From an uncultured Halobacteriales archaeon (GTDB lineage Archaea > Halobacteriota > Halobacteria > Halobacteriales > Haloarculaceae), in the NCBI GenBank assembly GCA_964523745.1, contig CAZGAX010000002.1:7945-71944 (forward strand): DNA of 64,000 nucleotides, read 5' to 3'. This document shows, one piece after another, positions 44,137 through 62,164 of this stretch. The notes below the pieces were generated by a model that made no database searches, was not told the origin of the DNA, and saw nothing but the letters and a program-made list of their open reading frames with translations. The translations under genes and the position numbers were made by a program. Position 1 is the first letter of the stretch. The number at the start of each line of letters is the position of its first letter.

Positions 44137-45651
44137 ATGCTGCCCAGCGAACGTGCGACACGGCGACGATTGCGGCGCGAGTTCCCCGACCACCTCGCGG
44201 TGGTCGACCTCCCCCACGGCGTGGCCGCCGGGGACGTCACCCCCGAGACGGCCGTCGTCTGGACGCGGACGGCCGAACCGGCGGTGGTCCACGTCGAGTA
44301 CGCCACCGACCCCGACTTCGCCCGGTCCGACCGGGCGATCCCGCGACCCACCGACGAGGGTCGCGAGGCCGACCGGACGGTCAGCGTCCGGCTTCGGGGT
44401 CTCCGGCCGGGGACGCGCTACTACTACCGGGTCTGGGCGCTGTCGGGTGCTGGCGCCGCCGAGCTGTTCGACGCGCCGGAGTGTGCGACGACCGGCCGGT
44501 TTCACACGGCGCCGTCGCACGACGACGACGCGGCCGTCTCGTTCGTCTGGACCGGCGACACATACGGCCAGCGCCGCGAACCGCCCTACCAGGTCCCCCG
44601 GCAGATGGCTGGCTTCGACCCGGACTGCTTCCTGTACCTCGGCGACACCATCTACGCCGACTCGCCGACGCCGGCGGTCCCCGACGGCGAGCCCGAGTCC
44701 GTCGACGACTACCGCGCCAAGTACCGGGAGGTCCGCGAGGAGGCCACGAACCTCCGGGAGTTCCTCGCCCGGACGGCCGTCGTTCCCATCTGGGACGACC
44801 ACGAGGTGGCAAACGACTGGGCCGGAACGGTAGAAACGCGCCTGCCAGCCGGCCGGCAGGCCTTCTTCGAGTACTGGCCGGTCGACACACACGAGTCGGT
44901 GACGGGCGCCGACGAGCACCGGCTCTACCGGTCGTTCCGGTGGGGCGAGCGCGTCGAACTGTTCGTCCTCGACACCCGGCAGTACCGCGACGACAACGGA
45001 TTGCCGGACGGCCCCGAGAAGACGATGCTCGGCGCCGAACAGCGCGAGTGGCTGAAAGACGGGCTCGAAACGTCCGATGCGACGTTCGCCCTCGTGGCCA
45101 GCAGCACCTCGCTGTCCAGTCCGTCGAGCGACCCCGACGAGCGGGACTCCTGGGCCAGCGGGGATAGCGAGACGGGCTTCGAGTCCGAGCTCCTGGAGAT
45201 CACCGGCCACGTCAGGGAAGCGGTCGACAGCACGGTGGTCTGGCTCACGGGCGACCGGCACTTCGCCCGGCTCGCCTCGTTCGACCTCGACCGCGACGGC
45301 CAGCCGGAGATGTACGAGGCCATGGCGTCGCCGATGGGGGCCTGGCCCCGCGAGCCCGGCGACCCGGACGCGACGCTCGCCCCCACCGTCCACTTCGAGA
45401 AGGGCGGCAAGTACGAGTACGGCGAGTTCTACAACTTCGGTCACGTCGAGGCAGACGACGACGCGCTCCGGGTCAGCATCTACGACAAGGTCGGGGAGCG
45501 TCAATGTACGGTGGAAATCGACGCCGACGGCGGGTGGCCGACCGTCGACCAGCCGGACGGGGACGGGCACGAGAACGGGGACGATGACGCCCCGACCCTC
45601 GCCGAAACGCTCCGGCGGCGATTCGGCGCAACGGTCGGGCGGTGGCTGTAG
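44137..45651 (+). CDS. phoD: Alkaline phosphatase D (PhoD) family metallophosphatase
   Basis: 504 aa. The PhoD N-domain is GVAAGDVTPETAVVWTR ... GTRYYYR. The metallophosphatase core is FLYLGDTIYAD, WDDHEV. Confidence 0.85.
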   Translation: MLPSERATRRRLRREFPDHLAVVDLPHGVAAGDVTPETAVVWTRTAEPAVVHVEYATDPDFARSDRAIPRPTDEGREADRTVSVRLRGLRPGTRYYYRVWALSGAGAAELFDAPECATTGRFHTAPSHDDDAAVSFVWTGDTYGQRREPPYQVPRQMAGFDPDCFLYLGDTIYADSPTPAVPDGEPESVDDYRAKYREVREEATNLREFLARTAVVPIWDDHEVANDWAGTVETRLPAGRQAFFEYWPVDTHESVTGADEHRLYRSFRWGERVELFVLDTRQYRDDNGLPDGPEKTMLGAEQREWLKDGLETSDATFALVASSTSLSSPSSDPDERDSWASGDSETGFESELLEITGHVREAVDSTVVWLTGDRHFARLASFDLDRDGQPEMYEAMASPMGAWPREPGDPDATLAPTVHFEKGGKYEYGEFYNFGHVEADDDALRVSIYDKVGERQCTVEIDADGGWPTVDQPDGDGHENGDDDAPTLAETLRRRFGATVGRWL

Positions 45652-45657
45652 CGGACG

Positions 45658-46677
45658 ATGGCGCTCGAACTCCTAGCCGTCGCCGGGTTGGCGATCGCCG
45701 TCTTCGTCGGCGTGACCGTCGGCGGCTCGTCTACCGGGGTCGCGTTCGGGCCGGCCGTCGGCAGCGACGTCATCACGATGCGCCAGGCGTCGGCGCTGAT
45801 GGCGGGGTTCGTCCTCCTGGGCGGCGTCACCGTCGGGACGCGCGTCGTCGAGACGCTGGGGAAGAAGATCGTGCCGCCGACGGCCTTCACGATGGAGGTC
45901 GCGGTCGGCATCTTGCTGTTCACGGGGCTGAGCATCCTCGTGGGCAACCTCCTGAAGGTCTCCGTCAGCACGAGCGAGACGGCCGTCGGGGCGGTCGTCG
46001 GCACGGCCACGGCGCTGGGCGTCGTCGACTGGGGCGTCGTCGGCCACCTCGTCATCTGGTGGTTCGTCTCGGTCGTCGTCGCGTTCTGGGCGGCGGCGGT
46101 CGTCGGCCGGTACGCCTTCGAACCGCTGCGGGACCGCCTGGACCTCGACTCGGGAGGTCGAAAAGTTTTCTCGCGGCTCCTCGCCGTCGGCCTGGGCTGT
46201 TACATGGCGTTTACGGCCGGGGCGTCGAACACGGCGAGCGCCGTCGCGCCGCTGGTCGGCGCCGGCCGCCTGGGGATGGTGCCCGCCGTCCTTATCGGCG
46301 GGGTCGCCATCGGCCTCGGGAGTTTCCTGCTGGGTCACCGGACGATGGAGACCATCGGCGAGGGCATCACGTCGCTGCCCATCGAGGCCACCCTCGTCGT
46401 CGAGGCGATGGCGGCGACCATCGTCACCCTGCTGAGCCTCGCGGGCATTCCAGCCAGCATCGCCATCACGACGACGACCTGCGTGATCGGCCTGGGCTGG
46501 GGCCGGGCGAGTCGGCGCGAGTCGATCGAGTCGGGGGACGGCGGTAAATCAGCCCGGCGTCGGATCGCCGCGCTCTACGACCGCCGGACCGTCGGTCGCA
46601 TCGTCGCGACGTGGGTCGCCACGCCGACGTTGGCCGGTGGGCTGGCGTTCGTGGCGTTTCGGCTGGCACTTGGCTAG
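45658..46677 (+). CDS. PiT (PHO4) family transporter homolog with altered signature motifs
   Basis: 339 aa and multi-TM. The two PiT signature regions are recognizable (GGSSTGVAFGPAVGS and GASNTASAVAPLVGA). They lack the usual Asp of the GANDVAN-type motif. Confidence 0.75.
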   Translation: MALELLAVAGLAIAVFVGVTVGGSSTGVAFGPAVGSDVITMRQASALMAGFVLLGGVTVGTRVVETLGKKIVPPTAFTMEVAVGILLFTGLSILVGNLLKVSVSTSETAVGAVVGTATALGVVDWGVVGHLVIWWFVSVVVAFWAAAVVGRYAFEPLRDRLDLDSGGRKVFSRLLAVGLGCYMAFTAGASNTASAVAPLVGAGRLGMVPAVLIGGVAIGLGSFLLGHRTMETIGEGITSLPIEATLVVEAMAATIVTLLSLAGIPASIAITTTTCVIGLGWGRASRRESIESGDGGKSARRRIAALYDRRTVGRIVATWVATPTLAGGLAFVAFRLALG

Positions 46678-46759
46678 TGCGATTTCGGTCGGTCGAGCGA
46701 TGAAGATGGGTTCCTCCGCACATCTTATAGCCAGGAGGGGAACAAGCTCTGAAAAGTGA

Positions 46760-47134
46760 ATGCCCGAGAAACCACGGAACTACGACCGCGAGTTCACAAC
46801 GCCACTCGGGTACCGAGCACGGCGACGAATCGGCTACTGCCACGACCACGGCGACGTAACCCGGTTCGTAGTGCAGGTGGAACACCGCCTCGACGGGGAG
46901 TGGGCCGAAGTCGTTCGTTTCGACCACGATCCCCACGGCGAACAGGGCCACGACGTGACCGTCGACGCCGTCCACACGGACGTCTATCGAGATGGCGAGA
47001 AGCTACGGTCGCCGGAGATCTTCCCGCCGATGCCCGCAAACAGTGCCCTCGCGAGTGTCGAAGTACACATTACCCAGCACGGCAAGCGATACGTCAAGAG
47101 GTTTGAGGAATGGCACCAGATCAGGAACCGATGA
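46760..47134 (+). CDS. Hypothetical basic/His-rich 124-aa protein
   Basis: Clean ORF. ATGA overlap with a following 45-aa acidic ORF. No family recognized. Confidence 0.5.
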   Translation: MPEKPRNYDREFTTPLGYRARRRIGYCHDHGDVTRFVVQVEHRLDGEWAEVVRFDHDPHGEQGHDVTVDAVHTDVYRDGEKLRSPEIFPPMPANSALASVEVHITQHGKRYVKRFEEWHQIRNR

Positions 47135-47268
47135 CCGACGACGAACTCGAGGAGTTCGAGGACGCAATGGAAGAGCAGGGTGAAGAACTCCGAGAAGCGC
47201 TCGCTGAGGACCTGGGCGGCGACCCTGACGACTACCGAAAGCGTCCCGTCGCCGACGGCGAGGAGTAA
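47131..47268 (+). CDS. Hypothetical 45-aa very acidic protein
   Basis: Manual translation MTDDELEEFEDAMEEQGEELREALAEDLGGDPDDYRKRPVADGEE. The start overlaps the stop of the previous ORF. Confidence 0.45.
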   Translation: MTDDELEEFEDAMEEQGEELREALAEDLGGDPDDYRKRPVADGEE

Positions 47269-47423
47269 CCGACTCTTCTCTCGATCAGCGATCTTCAGCA
47301 GATTCGTCTCTCGTCGTAAGCGTCCAGGAAACGGGATCGCCTCGGGTCCCATGTTCCGTGTTTGAGCGAAACGCTCGCCAGCCAACTTCGGCGACCCTGC
47401 AATAGAATGCGGGAGAGGAGATT

Positions 47424-49058
47424 TCAGACCGGCCGCCGGTGAATCTCGGTACTACCCGCCGGAACCCGAAACCGCGCAATCGGCCGGCGCTCGACGTCCG
47501 GCGCGTCCCGGGTCTTGTCCACGCTGTAGGCCGTGAACGTACAGGCCTCCGGGGTAAACTCCACCACCGAGTAGCCCCAGTGGTGGCTGTCGAAGCACTC
47601 GTAGTGGGGGTTCATCAGCGTCGCCAGGCCGTTGAACAGCGGTCTCGTGAGCCGCTTGCGAAGACCCCCCTCGACGCCGACCGCCTCGGCGATGTTGACG
47701 CTCGTCACCGAGGGCGTCATGAACTCCACGCCGACGGGCGAGCCGTCCGGGAGGTTCTGGTTCCCGGCGATGGTCGTGTGCATGTCGCCGGTCAGCGTAA
47801 CGGCGTTGTCGGTGCTGTCCAGCGCCTCGTAGACCAGCGTTCGCTCGTAGGGGTAGCCGTCCCAGGAGTCGGGGTTCGGGTGGACGGCCAGCGGACCGAG
47901 GCCGACGCGGAACGGCATCGAGAGCACCTCGTTGGCCCAGACCGTCCAGCGGCCGTCCGACGAGCGGACCGTCTCGCGGAACCACTCGCGCTGCTCGGCG
48001 CCGAGCATCGTCCGCTCGGGGTCGTCCCGGTCGTGGACGGGGACCCAGCCCGGGAATTTGCTGTCGACGCCGGGCGGCGGGCTGCGGAACAGTCGCTCGT
48101 CGGTGAGGACGAGGTCCGCCAGGTCGCCGAAGGGGACGTGACGCCAGAGCTCGAGGGCGTCGTGGAGGTGGTCGGCGTCGGGGTCGTAGTCGATGCGGGC
48201 CGGGGTGTACTCCCACCAGGAGCGGATGCCATCTGCGGTCAACCGCCGCATGAACTCCGGGTCGTCGCCGCGGGGGTGGTCCGGCGCGGCCGGCGCGTCG
48301 GCCTCGTAGTCCCAGTAGCGGTTGTTCGTCACGGCGTGGTCGTCCCAGGCACGGATGACGGTGTGGCGCTCGTGGGCCGCCTGGAGGAAGCCGTCGGTCC
48401 GGTAGGTCCGGTAGATGTGCCGGAAGTCCGCCAGCGTCGTGGCGACGTCGTTCCCGCTGGGCAGCGAGAGATTTCTGCCCTGGTAGGTATTCGACCCCGG
48501 CTGGCGGTACCGCTGGTCCGACGACTCGTAGACGTAGTCGCCGAGGTGGAGGACGAAGTCGACGTCCGCGTCGGCGACGTGGCGGTAGGCGCCGAAGTAG
48601 CCGTTCTGGTAGTGCTGGCAGCTGACGACGGCGAGTGTGACGCTGTCGGGCAACGAGTCGGGGGCCGGAAGCGTTCGACAGCGGCCTAGCTGGCTGGCGA
48701 CGCCGCCGTAGCCGAACTGGTAGTAGTACCGGCGGTCGGGTTCCAGTTCGCCGTCGAGGTCAACCCGGACCGTGTAGTCGTGGCGCGGGCCGACTTCGGT
48801 GGCGGGGATCCGGACCCGGGAGACCACCGACTCGAAGCCGAGGTCGGCGGCAACGACGAGCGAGAGCGGCGTCCCGGGGTCGTAGGCCGAGGGAGCGACC
48901 CGCGTCCAGCAGATGACGCCGGTCGGCGTCGGACCGCCGCTGGCGACCGACTGGGGGAAGACGCGTTCGGTGTCGGCACTCTCGGTGGCGTCGGACAGGT
49001 CCGCCGACGGGGCGTCGGCGGCGCGTACCGGCGACCGGAGACCCATGTCGGGGATCAC
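47424..49058 (-). CDS. phoD: Alkaline phosphatase D (PhoD) family metallophosphatase, second copy
   Basis: 544 aa with VASGGPTPTGVICWTR, RYYYQF, VLHLGDYVYES and WDDHAV. Confidence 0.85.
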   Translation of the reverse strand: MIPDMGLRSPVRAADAPSADLSDATESADTERVFPQSVASGGPTPTGVICWTRVAPSAYDPGTPLSLVVAADLGFESVVSRVRIPATEVGPRHDYTVRVDLDGELEPDRRYYYQFGYGGVASQLGRCRTLPAPDSLPDSVTLAVVSCQHYQNGYFGAYRHVADADVDFVLHLGDYVYESSDQRYRQPGSNTYQGRNLSLPSGNDVATTLADFRHIYRTYRTDGFLQAAHERHTVIRAWDDHAVTNNRYWDYEADAPAAPDHPRGDDPEFMRRLTADGIRSWWEYTPARIDYDPDADHLHDALELWRHVPFGDLADLVLTDERLFRSPPPGVDSKFPGWVPVHDRDDPERTMLGAEQREWFRETVRSSDGRWTVWANEVLSMPFRVGLGPLAVHPNPDSWDGYPYERTLVYEALDSTDNAVTLTGDMHTTIAGNQNLPDGSPVGVEFMTPSVTSVNIAEAVGVEGGLRKRLTRPLFNGLATLMNPHYECFDSHHWGYSVVEFTPEACTFTAYSVDKTRDAPDVERRPIARFRVPAGSTEIHRRPV

Positions 49059-49168: not shown

Positions 49169-49342
49169 TCAGTCGCTGCCTTTCTTGCCGCTCGTCAGCA
49201 TCCAGGTCACCCCGAGGGCGACCGTGCCGACGATAGACACGAGCAGTAGTAGTTCCCACGAGATGGAGACGGAACCACTTCCGCCGCCGGGCGTGGCAGT
49301 CTGTGCGATGGCGAAACCGTCGAGGGTCGTGTGTGTGAGCAT
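49169..49342 (-). CDS. 57-aa single-pass membrane peptide, member 1 of a 3-copy family
   Basis: Manual translation MLTHTTLDGFAIAQTATPGGGSGSVSISWELLLLVSIVGTVALGVTWMLTSGKKGSD. It shares SWE and WMLTSG with the paralogs. Confidence 0.55.
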   Translation of the reverse strand: MLTHTTLDGFAIAQTATPGGGSGSVSISWELLLLVSIVGTVALGVTWMLTSGKKGSD

Positions 49343-49388
49343 CGCTACCCATCGGAAACGTGGCGACGCCCCAACAAATGAAGGTACG

Positions 49389-49410
49389 ACCCGGTAGAGA
49401 GCTACCAGGT
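49389..49410 (-). terminator. Hairpin plus T-rich tract immediately after the peptide-2 stop
   Basis: Minus strand reads ACCTGGTAG-CTCT-CTACCGGGT (9-bp stem including one G-U) followed by CGTACCTTCATTTGTT. Confidence 0.4.
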
Positions 49411-49562
49411 CAGTCCGGCGTCTGGCGCAGGAAGAAGTACCAGATCCCGCCGAGGACCAGGATCCCTGCGAGGACGACGATCGCGATTATTTCCCACGAA
49501 GGCAAACCTCCGCCGGAGCTCTGCAGGACGCTTCCCGTCTGGAGTGCTGCGAGTGCGGTCAT
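49410..49562 (-). CDS. 50-aa single-pass membrane peptide, member 2 of a 3-copy family
   Basis: Manual translation MTALAALQTGSVLQSSGGGLPSWEIIAIVVLAGILVLGGIWYFFLRQTPD. A 15-aa block is identical to the copy at 58671. Confidence 0.6.
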   Translation of the reverse strand: MTALAALQTGSVLQSSGGGLPSWEIIAIVVLAGILVLGGIWYFFLRQTPD

Positions 49563-49609
49563 TGCGACCACGTTCCCAACAACGTGACGGTGGGAAAAGT
49601 GGGGTGTAC

Positions 49610-49631
49610 ACCCGGTAGCACGCTACCAGGT
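49610..49631 (-). terminator. Second copy of the ACCTGGTAGC...CTACCGGGT hairpin, followed by a TTTT tract
   Basis: Minus strand reads ACCTGGTAG-CGTG-CTACCGGGT then GTACACCCCACTTTTCCC. It lies 45 nt after the repeat-protein stop and 48 nt before the peptide-2 start. Confidence 0.4.
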
Positions 49632-49675
49632 TCGAGCGTACCACGAGTGGGCCGAGGAGTCGGAGGCGGTCGTCG

Positions 49676-50242
49676 TTACGCAATGTCAACGTCGTCCGGG
49701 TCGGTGCCGTCGGTGGAGTCCGCGTCGGCGTCCGCATCGTCGTCCGGCGCGGCAGGTGTCGAGTCGTCTGCAGGCGCCGGGTCGTCGGTAGACTTCCGGG
49801 CGGGACCGTCGTCGCTGGTGCCGCCGCGGACGCCGTCGTCGCTGCCAGCCTCTGTCCCGCCGCGAACGGCGTCGTCGGCCGCCGGGCCGTCGCGGACGTC
49901 GACGGTCGTGGAGTTGGCGGCGTTGCTGGCCGCCGCGCCGCCGTCGGGACCGACGGAGGTACTGCCGACTTCGCTGGCTGCGGCCGCTCCGTGGGGCCCC
50001 ACGGCGACGACGCCGACGTCGGAGGCCGCCGACGCGCCGTGTTCGCCGACGGCCGTCGAGACCGAACTGGTGTTGGAGCCGTGGACGCCAGACGCTGCCG
50101 TCGTCGCGCTACTGCTGGCGGGGCCGGTGCCCTGTTCGGCCTGGGCGTCGGCCTTCGAAGAGGTGGTGGCTTCGCCGTCGATTGGCTGCTTGTTCGTCTG
50201 TCCTTCCTTGTCGGAGCTGTTGTCGGGTTTCTTCAGTGCCAT
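49676..50242 (-). CDS. Gly/Ala/Ser-rich protein with four 16-residue tandem repeats and an acidic C-terminal tail (copy A)
   Basis: 188 aa. The repeats are SGVHGSNTSSVSTA / VGEHGASAASDVGVVA / VGPHGAAAASEVGSTS / VGPDGGAAASNAANSTT. There is no signal peptide or TM. The start lies 1 nt after the RHH gene stop. Confidence 0.65.
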   Translation of the reverse strand: MALKKPDNSSDKEGQTNKQPIDGEATTSSKADAQAEQGTGPASSSATTAASGVHGSNTSSVSTAVGEHGASAASDVGVVAVGPHGAAAASEVGSTSVGPDGGAAASNAANSTTVDVRDGPAADDAVRGGTEAGSDDGVRGGTSDDGPARKSTDDPAPADDSTPAAPDDDADADADSTDGTDPDDVDIA

Positions 50243-50243
50243 C

Positions 50244-50441
50244 TTACAGGTCGAGCTGGATTTCGTTCTTGCAGTGCGGACAGCTCAGGCCGTTCTCCGT
50301 CGCCGTCTGGTAGTGGTGTACGAGCCGCCGGAGTATCTCCGCACGTGTCGTCTCGCCGTTCTCCGCCCGTGTGTCCAGAAAGTCCGCCGTCTCCTGGGTT
50401 ACTTTCGTGCTGGCGGTGACGGTCCGATTCGAGTCGGACAT
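50244..50441 (-). CDS. Ribbon-helix-helix (CopG/Arc-like) protein with C-terminal CPHC motif
   Basis: Start MSDSNRTVTASTKVTQETADFLDTRAENGETTRAEILRRLVHHY shows a strand-helix-helix pattern. It ends SCPHCKNEIQLDL. Confidence 0.65.
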   Translation of the reverse strand: MSDSNRTVTASTKVTQETADFLDTRAENGETTRAEILRRLVHHYQTATENGLSCPHCKNEIQLDL

Positions 50442-50711
50442 CAGTTGCCCTTTCGTCGCCGTCGGCATAAGCCGGAAACACGGTCCAGTTCGCTATCACG
50501 TCCCTGCACAGGTCGTCGCCGCTGGACCTGTAGTTGGCGGGCACCGTCCCGGCGAGGACGTGGAGCGTGGTCTGCACCCGAGACGAGGGCCGGTGGCGTC
50601 AGCGGAGCCAGCGAGTGGTACCCGCCTCGGGGGGAAGTACTGCCACGACCGGACGAATCGCTAACACGTCTCGCCGGTCTTTGTGCGAGGACGGCGAAGG
50701 CGGCGACAGGT

Positions 50712-50999
50712 ATGCACACAGCCCTCGAGTGGTTCCCCGTCCTCGCGATCGCACCGCCAACCGTCGCCCAGGTCGTCCAATTCCTGGCTGCGGCGATGAT
50801 ACCGATCGGCCTGTTCTACGTCGCGACGCGACGCGACGAGCAGCGGCTCAAGTGGCGTGACCTCCTGATCGCTATCGGCATCTTCGTGTTGCCGATCGTG
50901 GTCATCCTCGGCATACAGGGCATCCTCTCGTCGTCGTACGCTGCCCTCATCATGGGGATCGTGATGGGTCACGTGATGGCCATGCTCGACGACGACTGA
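50712..50999 (+). CDS. 95-aa 3-TM membrane protein, tandem paralog a
   Basis: Last 95 codons of the 49584..50999 frame: MHTALEWFPVLAIAPP...MGIVMGHVMAMLDDD. It has the same length and topology as 51182..51469. Confidence 0.6.
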   Translation: MHTALEWFPVLAIAPPTVAQVVQFLAAAMIPIGLFYVATRRDEQRLKWRDLLIAIGIFVLPIVVILGIQGILSSSYAALIMGIVMGHVMAMLDDD

Positions 51000-51181: not shown

Positions 51182-51469
51182 ATGACGTTCACGCCCGACG
51201 TGGTTCCCGTTCTGACGACGACCGTACCGACGTTGTCCCACTTCGCCCAGATCGTCCTCGCCGCGACGATGCCGCTGGCAACGTGGCTCGTCCTCGGCAA
51301 GTCGAAGGTCCGGACGGTCAAGTGGTTCGACATGCTGCGGTTGATCGGTGGGCTGCTCGTGCCGACAGCCGCACTCCTCGCGATGCAGGGCGTCCTTCCA
51401 CCGCTGGTGGCGGGGGCTATCGTCGCGACGATGCTCGGCCACACCGCCACCCACGTCGACACGGACTGA
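51182..51469 (+). CDS. 95-aa 3-TM membrane protein, tandem paralog b
   Basis: MTFTPDVVPVLTTTVPTLSHFAQIVLAATMPL...KW(F/R)D(M/L)L...GAIVATMLGHTATHVDTD. It aligns without gaps to 50712..50999. Confidence 0.6.
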   Translation: MTFTPDVVPVLTTTVPTLSHFAQIVLAATMPLATWLVLGKSKVRTVKWFDMLRLIGGLLVPTAALLAMQGVLPPLVAGAIVATMLGHTATHVDTD

Positions 51470-51504: not shown

Positions 51505-52521
51505 GTGTCTCGCCAGCATACGCCAGACGGTTCCCTCCGTCGTAGTATGGTACTGTCCACGCACGGACCGGTAGTCCTCGCTGCCGTCACGGAGAGCCTG
51601 GACGTCTCACCCGAGGTCGCCGGTGCGATCGTCGGCGGGGCGATCGGTATCACCAGCGCCGCCGTCACGGCCGGCGTCAACTACCTTCTGACCAAAAAGC
51701 GGCTCAAGGCGAAGAACGAGCGGCGACTCGCCGAGTTCTTCCTGGACAAGAAAGTCGAGGCGCTGTCGGCAATCCACACGGAGCTGACGGACTGTTACAC
51801 GACGCTCGGCAAGGCCCTCCAGAACCCCTCGGGGTACGACTGGACCCGGGTCCACGCGGAGATTCATCCGGCGATCGACTCGTTCGAGCAGGCCATAACG
51901 GTCGGCGACGTCTACCTCACGGCCGAACAGGAGTCAGAACTCCGGGCGGCCGTCGACGAGTACCGCGCCGCGGCCGACAAGATAGCCATCCTCGAGAACG
52001 GTCGGCGGGACATGATCGACGACGTGTTCGACGCCACCGAGACCGCCGGCGGGACGCTCGCCGAGGAGATCAACGATCCCATCCGGCGGCTGGAGGGCGA
52101 GGACGGCTCGTCCGAAGCCAGAGAGGAGGCGACGGCCGAGAGTCGAGAGGTACCGGCGGAGACTGACAGCTCGAACTGGGCGGCACTCGCCACCCAGCAG
52201 GACCGCCTCCGGTCCGTCCTCGAGATCGGCGACGACGGCCGAGTTTCGTTTCACGTCGACGTCCAACCGACCGGTCGGGCGCTCTTTCGCATCGTCGGCC
52301 GCCGGTACGCCTACGAACGAGACCTCGTCGAGTCACCGACCGTGGCGGAGTCGGACCTGCTCTCGATCTTCGACGGCGATCCGGCTGCGCTCGACGCGTT
52401 TCTCGACGAGGCCGGCGAGCGGCTGATGAGCGACGACGACGAGTACTACGTGGAGGCAGAGGACATCGAGGAGACCATCGACAGGGCGTCCGAGTACGTC
52501 GTCGAAGCCGGCGGCGCCTGA
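51505..52521 (+). CDS. N-terminally membrane-anchored hypothetical protein (helical domain + acidic linker + C-terminal domain)
   Basis: 338 aa, with an alternative start MVLSTHG at 51547. The TM is AGAIVGGAIGITSAAVTAGVNYLL. The product is acidic. No family recognized. Confidence 0.6.
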   Translation: MSRQHTPDGSLRRSMVLSTHGPVVLAAVTESLDVSPEVAGAIVGGAIGITSAAVTAGVNYLLTKKRLKAKNERRLAEFFLDKKVEALSAIHTELTDCYTTLGKALQNPSGYDWTRVHAEIHPAIDSFEQAITVGDVYLTAEQESELRAAVDEYRAAADKIAILENGRRDMIDDVFDATETAGGTLAEEINDPIRRLEGEDGSSEAREEATAESREVPAETDSSNWAALATQQDRLRSVLEIGDDGRVSFHVDVQPTGRALFRIVGRRYAYERDLVESPTVAESDLLSIFDGDPAALDAFLDEAGERLMSDDDEYYVEAEDIEETIDRASEYVVEAGGA

Positions 52522-52583
52522 CCGCCCACGGCGGTTCGAACCGGCGTCGGTCACCGGCCGGACGCCGGTCCGTGACTCTGACG

Positions 52584-53117
52584 TCAGTCGACGTCCTGGT
52601 GGGGACCGATCGTGTCCGAGACCTTGTTGTTCCAGGAGACGAGGTAGTCGAGACCGGCGGCGTTGCAGGGGTTGACCGTCTGGAGGTGGCCCAGCAAGTA
52701 GTACGTCAGGGCGGTCTCGGAGGTGACGACCGTCAGTTCGTCGCTGTAATCCTCCAGTTCGCTCTCCATGTACTCCCGTGTCCCCTCGTCGTCGGCGTCG
52801 AGTACCACGAGAACCTGGGTTTCGTCGGGGAACGACCCCGTCCGGAGGTACGAGCCCAGCTGGGTGGCCCGGTCGGTGAACAGGCAGCTGTGGTGGACCA
52901 CCCAGACGGCGTACTGGACGAGTTTGTCGTACTCCGGGAGGTCGTCGAGCGAGTGGTAGTGTTCTTCGAGCAGTAGCTTGTCACAGGTCAGTTTCGACCG
53001 CACGTCGTCGAACGTCGGCGCCGGCTGGTCGCCGAAGAGCCTGTCCGTCTCGTTCAAGACGAGCACCGTCGTCTCGTGCGGTATCGCGTCTGTCGGGTCG
53101 TCGTACCGGTCTATCAT
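52584..53117 (-). CDS. Hypothetical acidic cytoplasmic protein
   Basis: 177-aa ORF with typical haloarchaeal composition. No motifs recognized. Confidence 0.55.
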   Translation of the reverse strand: MIDRYDDPTDAIPHETTVLVLNETDRLFGDQPAPTFDDVRSKLTCDKLLLEEHYHSLDDLPEYDKLVQYAVWVVHHSCLFTDRATQLGSYLRTGSFPDETQVLVVLDADDEGTREYMESELEDYSDELTVVTSETALTYYLLGHLQTVNPCNAAGLDYLVSWNNKVSDTIGPHQDVD

Positions 53118-53241
53118 GCGGCTGGTCGTCTGTCAGTGAGTAGGGGTTCGTGGTGCCGGTGCGTGGAGCGTCGTCGGCCATCGCGACCGAGCCGCGACGT
53201 CGGGCCGACGGTACCGACGATAGGTGAAAGACGGTAATGAC

Positions 53242-53260
53242 CTCCTCCGATATGGAGGAG
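53242..53260. terminator. Perfect 7-bp hairpin (ctcctcc-gatat-ggaggag) next to an AT-rich patch
   Basis: Seen directly in the sequence. It lies ~160 nt downstream of the 53418..54230 gene on the minus strand. Function is uncertain. Confidence 0.25.
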
Positions 53261-53417
53261 CGTTAAGATATTCTGTAGATGATAGGTTTGCGTCGTCTCC
53301 CGACGCCGACCGTGCCGACACGTGTTACCGGTTCGGACAGTCTCTGCGGTACTTCTTGCAGCCAGCGCAACGATAGGTACGATGCGTGGAGAGCGACAGC
53401 GCCTGGGTCCCCGTCGT

Positions 53418-54230
53418 TCAGTCGCTACGCCACTCGTGCCAGAGACTCCGGTAGAGACCACGTTCGCTCCGCGTCTCGATCAGCGACTTGATCTCGGCGG
53501 CCGTGGCGCCGACGGCCTGGCGGCGGGCGAGCAGTTCGGGGACCGCACTCTCGGGTGCGGCGGCGGCATCACGCAGCGCCGCGACCATCGCGTCGGCCCA
53601 GCCGTCGTCCCACTCGGCGTAGAACGTCTCGTAGCCCCAGTTGAACTCGACGGAGACGCGGTAGAGGACGGCCGCCGTGTCCACCCGGCCTTCGTCGACG
53701 TCGGCCGCGGTGAGACCGTCGACCTCGTCCCAGAGGAAGTCGAGGGCGGCCGGTTCGAATCCGTGGCCCGTCTCGCGGAACGCCGGGTCGGTGGCGAGCA
53801 CCGGCGCGTTTCGTCGGAACCAGGTCCGCAAGTCGACGGTCCGACCGGACCGGAGTTCGGCCACCGGGTCGCCGTCGGCGGCGACAGTCGGCGGCAGTGC
53901 CCCGACGAACGCGTCGAGGTCTTCCGGTCGTTCGTGGCCGGCCAGTTCGCTGAGGTCGCTGGCGTACCGGTCGAGTGCCTCCGCCAGGTCGGCGTCGACC
54001 CGGTAGGTCTTGTAGTACTCCAGGTCGGCCCACAGCGAGCTGTAGTCGCCGTCCTCGCCGGGGAGTTCGCCGGAGACGACGTTGGTGAGTTCGCCGTACA
54101 GCGGCTGGTACACCTTGGTTTCGAGCCACCGACGCCGTTCGCGGTGGTCGGTCAGCAGTGCCGTCACGAGAGCGAGCGTCAGGCCGGCGAGGGAACTGAG
54201 CGCCGAACCCAGGAGGAGACCCCACTCCAT
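53418..54230 (-). CDS. N-terminally membrane-anchored hypothetical protein
   Basis: 270 aa. The TM is WGLLLGSALSSLAGLTLALVTALL, followed by an acidic Trp/Tyr-rich soluble domain. No family recognized. Confidence 0.6.
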   Translation of the reverse strand: MEWGLLLGSALSSLAGLTLALVTALLTDHRERRRWLETKVYQPLYGELTNVVSGELPGEDGDYSSLWADLEYYKTYRVDADLAEALDRYASDLSELAGHERPEDLDAFVGALPPTVAADGDPVAELRSGRTVDLRTWFRRNAPVLATDPAFRETGHGFEPAALDFLWDEVDGLTAADVDEGRVDTAAVLYRVSVEFNWGYETFYAEWDDGWADAMVAALRDAAAAPESAVPELLARRQAVGATAAEIKSLIETRSERGLYRSLWHEWRSD

Positions 54231-54310
54231 GCCGGGACTAGCGCTGCCGGCGATTTGAACCGCCGACCCGTGTTGAGAATGTCCAACGAATCCGCGACCG
54301 GAGGGACGGC

Positions 54311-55072
54311 GTGACCGGCGTCAGGGGGTTCTGGGCGGCGGCGACCGACACGACGACACAGGGACTCGCAGAGCGGTTGGTCCTGGCGCTCATTCTGTGT
54401 AACACTGTGGCGGTAGTCCTCAGTACCGTCGAGCCGGTGACGGCGCGGTACGGCCCGGTCCTGCGAGGCATCGAATACGTCGCAGTCGGTGCGTTCACCG
54501 TCGAATTCGTCCTTCGGATAGCGAGCCGACTCGCCCGGCCGGCTCCCTCCGGGAGCCGGCTGGCACGCCTTCGCGACCCGTACCTGGTGGTCGACCTGCT
54601 GGCCATCCTGCCGGCGTACGTCGGCGGGACCCGGGGCGTCAACGGAATCGAGTCGTCGAGCCTGGTGCGGGTGCTCCGACTGTTGAAGTTCGTCCGGTAC
54701 TTCAAGGGGGTCGAACGGCTCGGTCGCGTCGTCAACCGCAAGCGGGCCGACCTCGCGGCCTCGGTGTTCTGGACGGGGCTGCTCTGGCTCGTGGCAGCCA
54801 GCGGGGTGTACTTCGCCGAACGGACCGCCCAGCCCGAGGCGTTCTCCAGCATCCCCGCTGCGCTCTGGTGGGCCGGCGTCACTATCACCACCGTCGGCTA
54901 CGGCGACGTCTACCCGGTCACGCCGCTCGGACGACTGCTGGGCGTCGTCGTCGCACTGCTGGGCGTCGGCATCGCAGCGGTCCCGTCGAGCATCCTCGTC
55001 TCGGGGTTCCTGGAGGAGACCGGCCAGAGCACGCAGACGTGTCCACACTGCGGGGAGGAATTCGATGGTTGA
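54311..55072 (+). CDS. Voltage-gated-type (6-TM) potassium channel with TVGYGD filter and C-terminal CPHC motif
   Basis: GTG start. The S4-like segment is SLVRVLRLLKFVRYFKGVERLGR. The pore is WWAGVTITTVGYGDVYP. It ends TCPHCGEEFDG. Confidence 0.85.
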   Translation: MTGVRGFWAAATDTTTQGLAERLVLALILCNTVAVVLSTVEPVTARYGPVLRGIEYVAVGAFTVEFVLRIASRLARPAPSGSRLARLRDPYLVVDLLAILPAYVGGTRGVNGIESSSLVRVLRLLKFVRYFKGVERLGRVVNRKRADLAASVFWTGLLWLVAASGVYFAERTAQPEAFSSIPAALWWAGVTITTVGYGDVYPVTPLGRLLGVVVALLGVGIAAVPSSILVSGFLEETGQSTQTCPHCGEEFDG

Positions 55073-56012
55073 GGAGGGCTCGCGAATCCCCCCGACCGGG
55101 GAGGTGGACGACCCGCTGTCGTCCCACGGCGTCGGACCAGCGCCGTCCGAGACGCCCGAGCCGCGGCCCCACTCGGCTACACTGTCCCGGCGGGGGCAGA
55201 TCCTCCTGGAGTACGTCACCTTCGGCCACGGCGTCCACCACCTGCTGAAGGCCGTCGTCCTCCAGTTCGTCATCCTGTTTCTCGACGCGGGACTGTTCGA
55301 GTACACTACGCGGACCGGCGCGTTCGTCGGGCAGTGGGTCGTTCCGGTCGTCTGGCTGCTGGCGACGCTGGTGTTTTGCTGCATCCTGGTCGTGCTCGTC
55401 AGGCGGATCGGTCGGCGGACGCTCGCGCCGCGGTTCCACCGGCCGCGACACGTCGTCGGGTCGGTCGCGGGCCACCTCACGGCGTCGGGGCTGTCCTTTG
55501 CCTTCGGCTACCTGACGTTCGTCTACCCGCGACGGCCGGTCGAGGGACTGTCGGTGCCCGACCTGCTGCCGGGGACGTTGCTCGTGCTGGTGTTCGCGAC
55601 GTTCGTCGCCATCGGCTACCACGAACAGGTCGACGTGACCGACCATCCGAGGCCGACGGTGATACGCGAGACTATCGACGCCTGGCTCGACGCCCTGTCG
55701 TGGATACAGCGAGACACGGACTCGCTGGCCCGGGAGAACGCCTACGAGGAGTTCAGGGCCCGCACCGACCGGCTGGCGACGCTGTTGTCATACGCCCACA
55801 CCGTCGAGGGGCGCGAACTCGCGGCCGACTTCCGGCAGTGGCACACGCAGTTCGAGACCCACTCTATGTTGAGCAAGGAGTTGATCGTCGAGGGGCAGGC
55901 AGAGGACGACGCACCCGAGAGCGAGCGGCTCGCAGCAGAGCACGAACGATTGCGGCGGCTCCGGGCACGGCTGGTCGTGGTCGCCGAATCGACTGACCGA
56001 CGGTCGTCGTAA
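55065..56012 (+). CDS. Membrane protein (about 4 TM) with C-terminal helical cytoplasmic domain, overlapping the channel gene
   Basis: 315 aa with an 8-nt overlap with the channel ORF. Hydrophobic segments are VVLQFVILFL, WVVPVVWLLATLVFCCILVVLV, ASGLSFAFGYLTF and LLVLVFATFVAIG. Confidence 0.6.
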   Translation: MVEEGSRIPPTGEVDDPLSSHGVGPAPSETPEPRPHSATLSRRGQILLEYVTFGHGVHHLLKAVVLQFVILFLDAGLFEYTTRTGAFVGQWVVPVVWLLATLVFCCILVVLVRRIGRRTLAPRFHRPRHVVGSVAGHLTASGLSFAFGYLTFVYPRRPVEGLSVPDLLPGTLLVLVFATFVAIGYHEQVDVTDHPRPTVIRETIDAWLDALSWIQRDTDSLARENAYEEFRARTDRLATLLSYAHTVEGRELAADFRQWHTQFETHSMLSKELIVEGQAEDDAPESERLAAEHERLRRLRARLVVVAESTDRRSS

Positions 56013-57214: not shown

Positions 57215-58240
57215 ATGAACCAGAAACCACGGACGGGCAACCGGATATCGGGTGAACGGGCTCGCCAGCACCCGACGGCCGACGACCAGCGAACGTCGAG
57301 CGGCCGACGGGACGCCGTCACGTCGGAAACTGAAGAAAACGATCCAGAGGTTTGTTCAGAGTGCGACGGCACGGTCGTCGTCGACGACGAACACGGCGAA
57401 CGGGCCTGTGAAGACTGCGGACTGGTCGTCGAGAGCGACCGCATCGACCCCAAGAGCGACTGGCAGGGGTACGACCCCGACAGTCGCGAGGGGTCGGCGC
57501 GGGTCGGTCCGCCGACGACGAACCGCCAGCACGACCGCGGCCTGTCGACGAACATCGACTGGCGCGACCGGGACGGCTACGGCAACTCCCTGGACGCCAG
57601 CCAGCGAGCGAAGATGCAGCGGCTGCGGACCTGGGACGAGCGGTTTCGCACGCGCGACTCCAAGGAACGGACGCTGAAGCTCGCCCTCGGAGAGATAGAG
57701 CGCATGGCGAGTGCGCTCGACCTGCCCTCGGTGGTCAGGGAGACGGCCAGCGCGATCTTCCGGCGGGCGCTCGAAGAGGACCTGCTCCCCGGACGGTCCG
57801 TGGAAGGGGTCGCCTCCGCCTGCGTCTACGCCGCTGCGCGCCAGAGCGACATGCCCCGCAGCCTGGACGAACTCGGTGACGTAAGCCGCGTAGAGCGCCA
57901 GAAAGTCTCGCGGGCCTACCGCTACGTCATCCAGGAACTCGAACTCGGCGTCGAACCGGCGAGACCGCGCGAGTACGTCCGGCGGTTCAGTTCCGACCTC
58001 GACCTGTCGAAGGAGGTCGCCGACCGGGCCTGCGAACTGCTCGACACGGCCAGCGAGGAGGGGATCCACACGGGACGGAGTCCGACCAGCATGGCGGCAG
58101 CCGCCATCTACGCGGCCGGGCTGTTCTTCGAGATAGAACTCGGTCAGGAAGAGGTGGCCGACGTGACGAACGTCAGTGACGTCACCATTCGCAAGCGCTA
58201 CCGGGAACTCCTCGAGGCCGACCCGAACCATCCCCTGTGA
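57215..58240 (+). CDS. tfb: Transcription initiation factor IIB (TFB), second, more divergent copy
   Basis: 341 aa with Zn ribbon CSECDG...CEDCG, B-reader region IDPKSDWQGY, and two cyclin repeats collinear with 32849..33862. Confidence 0.9.
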   Translation: MNQKPRTGNRISGERARQHPTADDQRTSSGRRDAVTSETEENDPEVCSECDGTVVVDDEHGERACEDCGLVVESDRIDPKSDWQGYDPDSREGSARVGPPTTNRQHDRGLSTNIDWRDRDGYGNSLDASQRAKMQRLRTWDERFRTRDSKERTLKLALGEIERMASALDLPSVVRETASAIFRRALEEDLLPGRSVEGVASACVYAAARQSDMPRSLDELGDVSRVERQKVSRAYRYVIQELELGVEPARPREYVRRFSSDLDLSKEVADRACELLDTASEEGIHTGRSPTSMAAAAIYAAGLFFEIELGQEEVADVTNVSDVTIRKRYRELLEADPNHPL

Positions 58241-58363
58241 CGGGGTGCGGGACGGCCTGAGCGCGCTGCTTCGCACCGGTTTTCGAACGACCGTACTGAC
58301 GCCGGCGACAGACGGTGCCAACCGCTCGCTCGCTGACGTCACCAGCCGACTCGCTGACACCGA

Positions 58364-58537
58364 ATGAAATACGCCGACGTCGTACTCGCGATACTGGTCG
58401 TCGGACAGTTGCTCACAACCACGGTTCTCGTCGCAATCGGCACGACTACCCACGTCGCTGTCGGCGTGGGGTCGCTCGTCGCGATAGCCGTCATCGTCCA
58501 CGCGCTGTTACTCAATCCGCCCGGGTCCGGCCGCTGA
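58364..58537 (+). CDS. 57-aa 2-TM membrane peptide
   Basis: Manual translation MKYADVVLAILVVGQLLTTTVLVAIGTTTHVAVGVGSLVAIAVIVHALLLNPPGSGR. Confidence 0.4.
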   Translation: MKYADVVLAILVVGQLLTTTVLVAIGTTTHVAVGVGSLVAIAVIVHALLLNPPGSGR

Positions 58538-58670
58538 CCGGCGGACTGTCCCGGTCGTCCAGCCGGGACGGGCGACCCGCTGAATCGGAAAGGTCGACCG
58601 GACGTGCAAGCTATCCAACGGATGATCGCGGGTCTTGATGGGGTGTCCCTAACGTCGAGACGTGGTCGAA

Positions 58671-58823
58671 ATGATCACCCCAGCTGCACTCCAGACGGGA
58701 AGCGTATTGCAAAGTTCCGGCGGGGGCATTTCCCTCGAAGTCATCCTCCTCGTCGGACTCGCCGCGGTCGTCGTCCTGGCACTGGCCTGGATGCTGACCA
58801 GCGGTGGCAGTAGCTCGGACTGA
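58671..58823 (+). CDS. 50-aa single-pass membrane peptide, member 3 of the 3-copy family
   Basis: Manual translation MITPAALQTGSVLQSSGGGISLEVILLVGLAAVVVLALAWMLTSGGSSSD. The 5' flank acgtggtcgaaATGA matches acgtggtcgcaATGA of member 2. Confidence 0.6.
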   Translation: MITPAALQTGSVLQSSGGGISLEVILLVGLAAVVVLALAWMLTSGGSSSD

Positions 58824-58924
58824 CGGCCACCTGCGGCCAACCGAACGCTCGACCCGGCCCACCGCGGATACCGGGCGAAACGTTTTCGGCATCACGAGTC
58901 GACAGTCAGCCGACGCCAGTTGCG

Positions 58925-59040
58925 CTGGCTCGAACATACAGTACTGTATTTTGTAGCACCCTGAACGATAAACGATATACTACATATTTATATAATAAGC
59001 CGCTTATTCATGGTACCAACTGGCTAATACTCGGTTGTTG
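58925..59040. promoter_or_regulatory. AT-rich spacer upstream of the PadR-like gene
   Basis: acagtactgtattttgtagcaccctgaacgataaacgatatactacatatttatataataagccgcttattcatgg contains multiple TATA-like elements. Confidence 0.35.
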
Positions 59041-59059
59041 AGACACAGGTGATTCGGAC

Positions 59060-59524
59060 ATGGAAACGGAACACAACTGGGCGAGACGAGACCGGCAGGA
59101 CCCGAACGAGGAGCCCTCGATGACTGTACACGACGCCGACGAGGGCACCCGCGGTCGGCCGACAAGGGCCTGCACCGACGGTGGAACCAACTGGACCGAC
59201 CTCACGGGCTTCCAGCGGGACCTCCTCCAGGCCATCCGGCACTGTACGCGAGAAGGAACCACGCCGACCGGCCAGGAGATAAAGGACCACCTGGAGACGA
59301 ACTACGCCGAAGAGATCAACAACGGACGGCTGTACCAGAACCTGAACGAACTCGTCGAACGAGACTTGCTCGAGAAAGGGTTCGTCGACGGCCGGACGAA
59401 CACCTACCGGCTCAGCGACCGAGCGATGGTGTTGCTGGACGAGACCGTCGAACGGCTCGCAGACGTCTGTGAGATGGAGGTCGTGGGACCGGCGGGCGTC
59501 GAGGACATCGACGTCCCGCAGTAA
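59060..59524 (+). CDS. PadR-family winged-helix transcription regulator
   Basis: LTGFQRDLLQAI...TGQEIKDHLETNYAEEINNGRLYQNLNELVERDLLEKGFVDGRTNTYRLSDRA. The start may be MTVHDADEG at 59120. Confidence 0.75.
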   Translation: METEHNWARRDRQDPNEEPSMTVHDADEGTRGRPTRACTDGGTNWTDLTGFQRDLLQAIRHCTREGTTPTGQEIKDHLETNYAEEINNGRLYQNLNELVERDLLEKGFVDGRTNTYRLSDRAMVLLDETVERLADVCEMEVVGPAGVEDIDVPQ

Positions 59525-59564: not shown

Positions 59565-59810
59565 CTAGTACGCGAGCCAGTTGCGACTGGCGCCCCGAGG
59601 CAGGGCTGCCGTCTTGCCCGCCGTCGTAAGACGGTAGAGGCCGTCGCCGACGTGTTCGACGTATCCGTCCCGTTCGAGTCGGGCGAACGCCGCTTCCCAG
59701 TCCTCGACGGGCGTGTCGTAGGTGGCGGCGACGGACTGCGCATCGAGCGGGATGGCGACCGAGGAGAGCAACACGAGGACGAGTTCCTCCCGGTGACAGT
59801 CAGTAACCAT
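59565..59810 (-). CDS. Small winged-helix-like protein
   Basis: 81 aa. FARLERDGYVEHVGDGLYRLTTAG resembles a wing/recognition-helix pattern. Confidence 0.5.
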   Translation of the reverse strand: MVTDCHREELVLVLLSSVAIPLDAQSVAATYDTPVEDWEAAFARLERDGYVEHVGDGLYRLTTAGKTAALPRGASRNWLAY

Positions 59811-59887
59811 CCGTGCGATGGACCCGGGGGTTGGCGGGGCCGGCTCTTATGTATACCGTCTAGTATATGAAGCGACGACGTCCGCCG

Positions 59888-60178
59888 TCAGCTCGTGACG
59901 GCGTCGTCGACTTCGGCGGGCGCCTCGAGTTCGTCGCGGCTAGCCTCGCCACCGAGAAACCGCCGACCGAGCGACGTGATCTCGTAGACCCCGGACGCGG
60001 AGACACCGGCCGGCGTCTCTTGCGGATACCTGATGAGCCCGTGTTCTTGCAGGGCACGTAACCGCTGGCGGAGGTACGTGTAGTCGTAGTCGATCTGGAA
60101 GGCAATGACCTTCGGCGTCAGTGCCATGTCGGTTTCGTCGAGGAGTTCGAGGATGGCGTCGTCGGGACCCCTGTTCAT
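59888..60178 (-). CDS. Winged-helix regulator of the phiH1-repressor-like type
   Basis: Start MNRGPDDAILELLDETDMALTPKVIAFQIDYDYTYLRQRLRALQEHGLIRY...YEITSLGRRFLGGE. This type is common on haloarchaeal plasmids and proviruses. Confidence 0.65.
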   Translation of the reverse strand: MNRGPDDAILELLDETDMALTPKVIAFQIDYDYTYLRQRLRALQEHGLIRYPQETPAGVSASGVYEITSLGRRFLGGEASRDELEAPAEVDDAVTS

Positions 60179-62161: not shown

Positions 62162-62164
62162 GCC

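Follow-up and report, generated by a model that had tools for sequence, protein, structure and literature searches.

A very rare family of 16-residue beta-repeat proteins linked to dedicated transcription regulators in haloarchaea and bacteria

Introduction

Intracellular beta-repeat proteins of the Toastrack type (DUF4097/DUF2154/DUF2807; the C-terminus of LiaG/LiaF, YvlB) have been proposed to form a signalling docking surface below the membrane, and their genes are found together with transmembrane (TM) partners, PadR regulators, sigma factors, two-component systems, ribbon-helix-helix (RHH) proteins, zinc-ribbon elements and transport operons (PMC11237479). Here we describe a repeat protein from a comparable context, encoded by the gene repA on contig CAZGAX010000002.1 of an uncultured Halobacteriales archaeon (assembly GCA_964523745.1). 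The whole 64-kb stretch that was analysed is called the window; its 67% GC, a GC content at third codon positions of ~0.8-0.9 and its acidic proteins are those of a typical haloarchaeon. The gene repA directly follows a gene for a small RHH regulator, two genes for single-pass membrane peptides lie next to it, and a second copy, repB, is found elsewhere in the window.

Like Toastrack, the repeat protein is a beta-strand repeat, predicted to be intracellular, without catalytic residues, and its loci contain TM or helical partners, PadR, sigma factors, two-component proteins, RHH proteins and transporters, as do the published Toastrack contexts (PMC11237479). It differs in its unit, which has 16 residues and two strands whereas Toastrack forms a three-sided beta-helix coil, and in having neither a PspC or LiaF-TM fusion nor PspA nearby. 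The central repeats of bacterial ice-nucleation proteins are 16-residue beta-solenoid coils (PMC9418140). The repeat protein shares with them the period, a unit of two short strands, and flat faces lined with small or polar residues. An ice-nucleation protein contains a long array of AGYGSTxT-type repeats, tens in number, carries a TxT/SxT motif and is anchored in the outer membrane, whereas the repeat protein has 3-5 repeats with the consensus VGPxGAAAASxVGVVx and is predicted to be cytoplasmic. The curli subunits CsgA/CsgB likewise consist of strand-turn-strand repeats in which Gly, Asn and Ser are conserved, and an 'SNAANS' segment of the repeat protein resembles them; unlike curli, it has no Sec signal, and its period is 16 as against ~22 residues.

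Results and discussion

An undescribed repeat family

A word-indexed search of 5.8 billion proteins revealed 13 relatives of the repeat protein, and a HMMER profile search of 1.84 billion cluster representatives revealed 42 family members, 38 of these with E<1e-10. The score cut-off of the profile search was sharp, and the only further match was a chance match. Members were found in haloarchaea and several bacterial lineages, Microbulbifer among them, with genomes of 40-72% GC, and the core is conserved across haloarchaea, Gammaproteobacteria, high-GC bacteria and one 40%-GC bacterium. A 471-aa plus-strand open reading frame (ORF) at 49584-50999 overlaps the module. This ORF is regarded as spurious, an artefact of high GC, because the minus-strand frame is conserved across genomes of 40-72% GC.

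Searches of Pfam and NCBIfam with the four ORFs of the module and their paralogs gave zero matches for the repeat protein and the peptides, the core was unmatched in Pfam in all 45 members of the family, and PADLOC did not match the repeat protein. The family profile gave 0 matches at E<=10 among the PDB sequences, and two AlphaFold2 models compared with PDB and BFVD using Foldseek had best E values of 0.16 and 0.088, with no consistent fold. The family was not described in the literature searched on DUF8015, on haloarchaeal RHH proteins with alanine-rich repeats and on 16-residue repeat solenoids. The original prediction, which was made from the letters of the DNA and its ORFs, could place the protein in no known family. 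This is confirmed by the HMMER searches and structure predictions on the core, which matched no characterised family and returned strand-turn repeats. As no Pfam, NCBIfam, PADLOC, PDB or viral-structure match was obtained, we regard the core as an undescribed domain and not as a divergent member of a known one. Judged from sequence comparison, the repeat protein is a real, conserved, very rare and previously undescribed family common to archaea and bacteria. The exact RepA and RepB sequences of the window are missing from a 15-billion-protein collection in which the RHH protein and all three peptides encoded on this contig do occur; rep genes may be missed or called differently in public annotations.

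The family alignment consists of a strongly conserved core of ~95 aa with variable, disordered flanks on both sides. The core consensus is ..TSxVxAEAEQGDGPAAASAS..TSxVSVVVGxxGAAAA(C/S)DxGVVAVGPxGAAAASEVGVxxVGPxGAAAxSNAANSxxV, and in RepA the core is followed by a disordered, Asp-rich tail. Autocorrelation of the profile from the 45-sequence alignment gave a sole peak at lag 16 (z=5.9 against 500 column shuffles). The period of the predicted four 16-residue repeats is thereby supported, and their number was slightly generous: RepA has three clean repeats (residues 58-105), and those flanking them are degenerate. AlphaFold2, run on the same alignment, predicted 6-residue strands separated by 2-residue turns, two strands to each 16-residue unit, with a predicted local distance difference test (pLDDT) score >90 at residues 70-100. 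The predicted strands are at residues 55-66, 69-73, 77-82, 85-90, 93-98, 101-106 and 111-116, in agreement with the strand-turn repeat first proposed. No signal peptide, TM segment or twin-arginine motif was found in the repeat protein (maximum Kyte-Doolittle 19-residue window, KD19, 0.97), again as proposed, and the protein is predicted to be cytoplasmic.

The RHH regulator and its operon with repA

The RHH gene ends with a TAA stop at 50246-50244, which is followed by a single base (50243) and the ATG of repA at 50242, so that the predicted distance of 1 nt between the two genes is correct. All four minus-strand ORFs of the prediction are present, and its end coordinate, 50441, is the ATG of the RHH gene. 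The longest ORF of this gene extends over 50244..50468, and the start in all six relatives, each of 65 aa, is the equivalent of ATG 50441; the upstream ATG at 50468 overlaps a TATA-like box. The haloarchaeal loci compared come from the genome of Halobacteriaceae archaeon GCM10025711 (L001), from metagenomes (L012/L014/L018 and L013) and from Sequence Read Archive assemblies (L016 and L017). The RHH–rep pair was found in 6/6 haloarchaeal loci, with an intergenic gap of -4 to +7 nt. From this arrangement, RHH and repA are read as a two-gene, translationally coupled operon.

The RHH family comprises 6 proteins among 5.8 billion, every one of 65 aa and with an invariant CPHC motif at the C-terminus. 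Five out of seven family members match Pfam RHH_1 (PF01402), with a best E value of 1.3e-7. The predicted RHH identity of the regulator therefore holds at the level of the family, on which the assignment rests because the window copy alone (E=0.0088, 16.4 bits) scores below the 20.5-bit cutoff. As in the autorepressors CopG, Arc and MetJ, an N-terminal beta-strand (RTVTAST) is followed by two helices, the gene heads a tightly coupled two-gene operon, and conserved DNA containing repeats adjoins its promoter. In contrast to classic CopG the protein bears the invariant C-terminal CPHC knuckle, and unlike CopG at large the family is tiny and confined to loci encoding the repeat protein.

Inspection of the upstream region revealed the sequence CTTATG ~30 nt ahead of the RHH ATG and a conserved box, ACGTGATAGCGAACTG (consensus ACGTsRTAGCGAACTG), ~15 nt further upstream. 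In L001 and L016 the elements CTTAT(C/G) and ACGTsRTAGCkrACTG precede the RHH gene at equal distances, and a TTAT box also precedes it in L017. A near-leaderless promoter and, beside it, a candidate operator are thereby suggested, and we infer that the elements function as such. Candidate operator sites for the RHH protein are the box at 50486-50501 and two palindromes, at 49610-49631 and 49389-49410.

Bacterial loci

Seven distinct bacterial loci were examined (L003, L006/L022, L007, L009, L011, L021 and L023). In each of them either a small helical protein of 49-128 aa is encoded directly after the repeat protein, or the repeat protein has a coiled coil fused to its C-terminus; such fusions are found in the family members P0004, P0027 and P0029. 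A DASS anion symporter (TIGR00785, above cutoff) is adjacent in 5/7 loci, and a SigJ-like extracytoplasmic function (ECF) or SigF-like sigma factor is encoded within a few genes in four (L003, L007, L009 and L011). NarL-type response regulators are present in three loci, and L021 encodes histidine kinases and a receiver domain. The Microbulbifer locus (CP116898.1; L006:6001-7830) contains two tandem pairs of a repeat protein and a helical protein of 72-75 aa. Upstream of these are a DASS permease and two NarL-type regulators, downstream is a 112-aa K+ channel-like gene, and phytase and PhoX genes flank the locus. In L007 (6914-8137) a radical S-adenosylmethionine (SAM) protein (Pfam 4.4e-20, CxxxCxxC, Cys-rich C-terminus) is encoded directly after the 50-aa partner; this gene is missing from the sister locus L009. 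The repeat protein is thus invariantly tied to a small partner in bacteria and to dedicated transcription regulators in both domains.

The single-pass peptides and the palindromes

The two membrane peptides of ~50 aa that were predicted as paralogs, pep1 and pep2, are indeed related: they are 30% identical, have the M/GG/S.E/W/terminal D columns in common, and reach KD19 values of 2.3-2.6. Pep1 is called in the NCBI record (P0061). The family has 19 haloarchaeal members, each with one very hydrophobic segment (KD19 2.3-3.2), the consensus MITPTALxxGTVLQTSGGGSGISxExILLIGIAAVVVxALxWMLTxxGxxSD and, in 18/19, a final Asp. Its usual setting is a block of genes for a paralogous transcription initiation factor (TFB), DUF8015, the peptide and PadR, as found in the window (57215-59524), in L014/L018 and in L017, where the block directly follows RHH-rep and contains three tandem peptides. 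The position of pep1/pep2 is occupied by a RimB-like gene in L001 and L016 and by nothing in L012 and L013. The idea of a compact four-gene module on one transcript is not supported: the RHH–rep linkage alone is invariant, and the peptides are missing at this position in L001, L012, L013 and L016. The expected co-occurrence in haloarchaea is found for RHH, the usual home of the peptides being the TFB-DUF8015-PadR block. The peptides form a conserved family of their own, and only in this genome do they adjoin repA. A weak likeness of the G|ISxE-hydrophobic segment of the peptides to a pilin/Flp-type processing site was observed. The peptides were rejected as class III signal/Flp pilins (PF04021 E=0.13 for pep3, an uncharged leader of 20-25 aa, no pilus genes in the scanned neighbourhood).

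The pep1 and pep2 cassettes, 221-241 nt long, are duplicated in tandem, and each starts with the motif ACCTGGTAG. This motif occurs 5 times in the window as against 0.23 expected, and three copies bracket the peptides on the minus strand. It had been claimed that the same hairpin brackets each peptide, which applies to the motif; only two of the bracketing copies (those at 49610-49631 and 49389-49410) are complete 9-10 bp palindromes, with the arms ACCTGGTAGC .. GCTACCGGGT and a spacer of N2-4, and the copy after pep2 is a half-site. A TATA-like box follows each palindrome, ~36 nt ahead of the peptide ATG, and pep1 and pep2 appear to have their own promoters. A similar palindrome is found in L017 (70-95). 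The RNA-fold z of the palindromes is ~-1.9, with a 10-bp stem predicted for palindrome 2, and because this signal is modest they may be either protein-binding sites or terminator-like hairpins between independent units. As intrinsic terminators they were rejected, being missed by a consensus scan and having a fold z of only ~-1.9. Only the strict 9-mer and palindrome are significant, the relaxed pattern GGTAGC..GCTACC being found 18 times as against 18.5 expected in shuffled sequence.

The second copy and the conserved island

RepB has a long acidic, disordered N-terminal region, and its core lies at the C-terminus, ending ..NExGVVAVGPEGGAxAS. The cores of RepA and RepB are 59% identical. Orthologs of RepB with the same N-terminus are P0003, L018:4573-5220, L016:67-390 and L001:10140-10403, and those in L001, L014/L018 and L016 hold the syntenic position. 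In the L001 ortholog (GCM10025711) the similarity ends after ..VGPEG and a Pro/Thr/Arg-rich tail follows, which suggests a frameshift or assembly error. Between the two rep copies, at 51505..56012, are island genes with syntenic orthologs (55-72% identity) in L001, L012/L014/L018 and L016; p338, p177, p270, the K+ channel, p315, repB and TFB make up the content of this conserved chromosomal island (Table 1). No relatives of the repeat protein were found in collections of viral contigs, phages and plasmids, which argues against a mobile-element origin. The second copy noticed in the window is thus real, and the mobile unit suggested by it is not supported: since distinct subtypes occupy syntenic positions in other haloarchaea, repA and repB are regarded as ancient paralogs and not as a recently moved unit.

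The CPHC knuckle of the RHH protein recurs at the end of the island K+ channel, and a CPxC knuckle is located ~21 aa ahead of the core in 8/45 repeat-family members, all bacterial. These knuckles may represent a shared zinc-mediated contact. Adjacency of rep and TFB is seen in the window, L014/L018 and L017. The 57-aa two-TM protein that follows TFB in the window has no Pfam match, and its orthologs at the same position in L017, L018 and L020 carry DUF8015 (PF26047).

Past PadR (59565-63520) are genes for an 81-aa protein and a winged helix-turn-helix protein (59888-60211), both syntenic in L014/L018, followed by a DUF892 ferritin-like stress protein (60220-60930), a glycosyltransferase (61091-62161) and a sulfatase (62165-63520). 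Divergent from the RHH gene, two paralogous 95-aa three-TM proteins with the acidic tails ..MLDDD and ..HVDTD are encoded at 50712-50999 (+) and 51182-51469 (+). This pair was seen only in this genome; at the same position elsewhere are FIMAH-domain proteins or nothing. Large proteins with a C-terminal FIMAH domain adjoin the rep locus in L012 (1721-4724), L016 (4258-5553), L018 (1-87) and the bacterial L011 (12-1337), and none is found in the window. Rfam and ARAGORN searches of the whole window gave no RNA family and no tRNA.

Table 1. Features of the repA locus and its surroundings (window coordinates)
Feature	Coordinates	Strand	Remarks
PhoD-like phosphatase	44137-45651	+	phosphate-acquisition cluster
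PHO4/PiT phosphate transporter	45658-46677	+	Pfam 2.2e-44
DUF7718	46760-47134	+	phosphate-acquisition cluster
PhoD	47424-49058	-	next gene after the peptides
Half-site, TGACCTGGTAG at pep2 stop codon	49148..49169	-	no 3' arm; fold z = +0.7, no hairpin
pep2, 57-aa single-pass peptide (P0054)	49169..49342	-	KD19 2.31
Palindrome 2, ACCTGGTAGCTCTCTACCGGGT	49389..49410	-	overlaps pep1 stop codon (TGACCTGGTAG); ahead of pep2 TATA-like box
pep1, 50-aa single-pass peptide	49410..49562	-	ATG start; 53 aa from GTG at 49571; KD19 2.61
Palindrome 1, ACCTGGTAGCGTGCTACCGGGT	49610..49631	-	between repA and pep1; followed by TATA-like CTTTTCC
repA, subtype A, 188 aa	49676..50242	-	N-terminus MALKKP; core residues ~26-118 (window 49889-50167)
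RHH (CopG-type) regulator	50244..50441	-	65 aa; C-terminal CPHC knuckle invariant
Putative promoter/operator of RHH-repA operon	50466..50501	-	TATA-like CTTATG 50466-50471; conserved box ACGTGATAGCGAACTG 50486-50501
p338	51505-52521	+	conserved island gene between rep copies
p177	52584-53117	-	conserved island gene between rep copies
p270	53418-54230	-	conserved island gene between rep copies
Voltage-gated-type K+ channel	54341-55066	+	NCBIfam; 72% identical to L018; ends ..TCPHCGxxLDE
p315, membrane protein	55065-56012	+	conserved island gene between rep copies
repB, subtype B, 247 aa	56047..56790	-	N-terminus MIWKAIFG; divergent from TFB gene
TFB, paralogous transcription initiation factor	57215..58240	+	Pfam TFIIB 4.5e-46, Zn_Ribbon_TF
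57-aa two-TM protein	58364..58537	+	41% identical to L018:7693-7863 (carries PF26047)
pep3, 50 aa (P0059)	58671..58823	+	third window member of peptide family
PadR-family regulator	59060..59524	+	Pfam PadR 5.4e-7; orthologs in L014/L018, L017; closes TFB-DUF8015-peptide group

Possible roles of the repeat protein

We tentatively favour an operon that regulates itself and encodes an intracellular docking platform built of beta-repeats, Toastrack-like in its logic and not a member of Toastrack, as a possible rather than a probable reading. The 65-aa RHH repressor with its CPHC zinc-knuckle tail would bind the conserved box or the palindromes beside the TATA elements and would thereby autoregulate its own operon. 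The core of RepA would be a stack of 16-residue units, each with two 6-residue strands of Gly/Ala/Ser/Val and the whole with disordered tails on both sides, and its flat surface of small residues would most likely serve as a platform for docking or self-association. This platform may be used together with small partners, in haloarchaea the single-pass peptides ending ..SD and in bacteria the small helical proteins (here 49-75 aa) or the fused coiled coil. Furthermore, dedicated regulators would control it: in haloarchaea RHH, PadR and the paralogous TFB, in bacteria sigma factors of the SigJ/SigF type or response regulators of the NarL type. Its place would be near membrane transport functions, in neighbourhoods that are rich in ion/anion transport and in phosphate/sulfate scavenging.

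Several observations weigh against the docking platform. The proposed function rests on an analogy of context: none of the 45 family members matches the Toastrack Pfam models at E<=1, and Foldseek against PDB matched no Toastrack or beta-helix entry (4QRK, 4OPW; best E 0.16). As membership was thus tested and not found in Pfam or Foldseek, the likeness to Toastrack is only an analogy at the level of function. The AlphaFold2 output fits an antiparallel meander and a two-sided solenoid alike, and a monomer as well as an oligomer. Pep1 and pep2 adjoin repA in the window only, and homology between the haloarchaeal peptides and the bacterial helical partners was rejected (hhalign probability 0.2%). 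Instead of operators, the palindromes could represent hairpins in the RNA, or terminators. Finally, no DASS permease was found in the haloarchaeal island. The comparison of peptides and partners was suggested by their ends, both starting M-x-T-(T)-P and ending [S/A]-D. A search for an SLC13/DASS permease in the window returned, as the only large symporter, a member of the SSF family 43 kb away.

Alternatively, though we consider this unlikely, the repeat protein may polymerise inside the cell into a filament or a silk-like beta-sheet assembly, in the manner of bactofilin or of a beta-solenoid polymer. Nucleation, capping or membrane anchoring would then fall to the small helical or TM proteins, and the regulators would simply time the production of the structural protein. 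A monomer of strand-turn repeats with Ala/Gly/Ser/Val on both faces would hardly be stable, and cheap amino acids and disordered termini are typical of abundant structural proteins. The paralog pairs in haloarchaea, the tandem pairs in Microbulbifer and the coiled coils fused to P0004, P0027 and P0029 are consistent with such a polymer. However, a chain contains merely 3-5 repeats, the extreme rarity of the family would be unusual for a cytoskeletal element, no Pfam bactofilin or solenoid match was obtained with the 45 members, and no structural analogue was found.

Quite unlikely, in our estimate, is a role of the module as an accessory of the response to anion (phosphate/sulfate) limitation. 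The repeat protein would then be made under starvation as a partner or regulator of anion transporters, or it would be a store or buffer of low cost. A phosphate-acquisition cluster is located directly downstream of the module (window 44137-49058) with PhoD twice and PHO4, and the sulfatase at 62165-63520 is encoded in the same window. Downstream of repA, PhoD is likewise encoded in L001, L013 and L016, and in L012 its place is taken by a PhoD paralog. In bacteria the DASS anion symporter of 5/7 loci, the phytase and PhoX genes that flank the Microbulbifer locus, and a sulfatase and FGE near the repeat gene in L021 are of the same kind. Also in favour, RepA of the window has zero Cys and only the initiator Met; against it, many bacterial members have 1-4 Cys. 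The link with the hydrolases is loose, as these come from different families, lie at differing distances and are not part of one operon, no Pho-type regulator was identified, and in L017 RHH-rep is located beside TFB/PadR with no phosphatase nearby.

A bolder extension of the docking platform, which we hold to be improbable, would make the repeat domain the core of an undescribed signalling device of archaea and bacteria. Here the platform and a tiny partner ending ..SD would control an initiation factor (TFB or a SigJ/SigF-type sigma factor) as an anti-TFB/anti-sigma-like switch tied to ion/anion homeostasis, and the CPHC tail of the RHH protein would link the device to DNA.

The original prediction also named a peptide toxin/immunity system among the possible roles. 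In a toxin-antitoxin-like arrangement a toxic beta-rich protein would be neutralised by the RHH protein as an antitoxin-type repressor, or in bacteria by the small helical protein, and the peptides would be toxins or immunity factors. Translational coupling of a small RHH gene to the gene downstream, the patchy and very rare distribution over distant taxa with a partner of varying type, and hydrophobic peptides of ~50 aa with Gly-Gly ahead of the TM segment would all suit this arrangement. We nevertheless find it very improbable: Pfam, NCBIfam and PADLOC gave no toxin, antitoxin or defence match, and neither a C39 peptidase nor an ABC exporter is encoded nearby. The stable chromosomal synteny in at least 4 haloarchaeal genomes and the DASS/sigma linkage kept in bacteria are atypical for mobile toxin-antitoxin cassettes, and relatives were not found on plasmids, phages or viral contigs.

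Resemblance to curlin-type functional amyloid was noted from the outset, and the short strand-turn repeats with fixed glycines, together with a 16-residue period as in bacterial ice-nucleation proteins (PMC9418140), would suit a secreted amyloid, or a fibre subunit of the envelope, like those of curli, chaplins or ice-nucleation proteins. Such a role is not supported. A Sec/Tat signal and a TM segment are lacking in every subtype, neither Curlin_rpt (PF07012) nor Ice_nucleation (PF00818) matched any of the 45 members at E<=1, no csgB/csgEFG-like (CsgB/E/F/G) or other export genes were found in the window or the related loci, and there are merely 3-5 repeats per protein. A secreted curli-type role is the least compatible with the data, and we rate a secreted fibre subunit as highly improbable.

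We give hardly any credence to a ribosomally synthesised and post-translationally modified peptide (RiPP) precursor, whose Ala/Ser/Cys-rich core or small downstream peptide would be modified by a maturase, as the radical-SAM gene directly after the 50-aa partner in L007 and the conserved termini of the small peptides might suggest, since no maturase is found in the sister locus L009, any other locus or the haloarchaeal island and a conserved core with variable flanks is the reverse of the usual pattern of conserved leader and variable core.

Significance

The present value of these results lies in the definition of the family, its boundaries and its linkage. The conserved company of the repeat protein (a zinc-knuckle RHH protein, TFB or sigma factors, PadR or NarL-type regulators, tiny partners, and DASS or phosphate scavenging) provides hypotheses that are testable in a tractable host. 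If the repeat protein were a self-assembling beta-sheet polymer, it would represent a new minimal repeat scaffold. If the tentatively favoured docking platform proved to serve in the control of regulators, it would be a rare case of one accessory logic serving both archaeal TFB and bacterial sigma factors.

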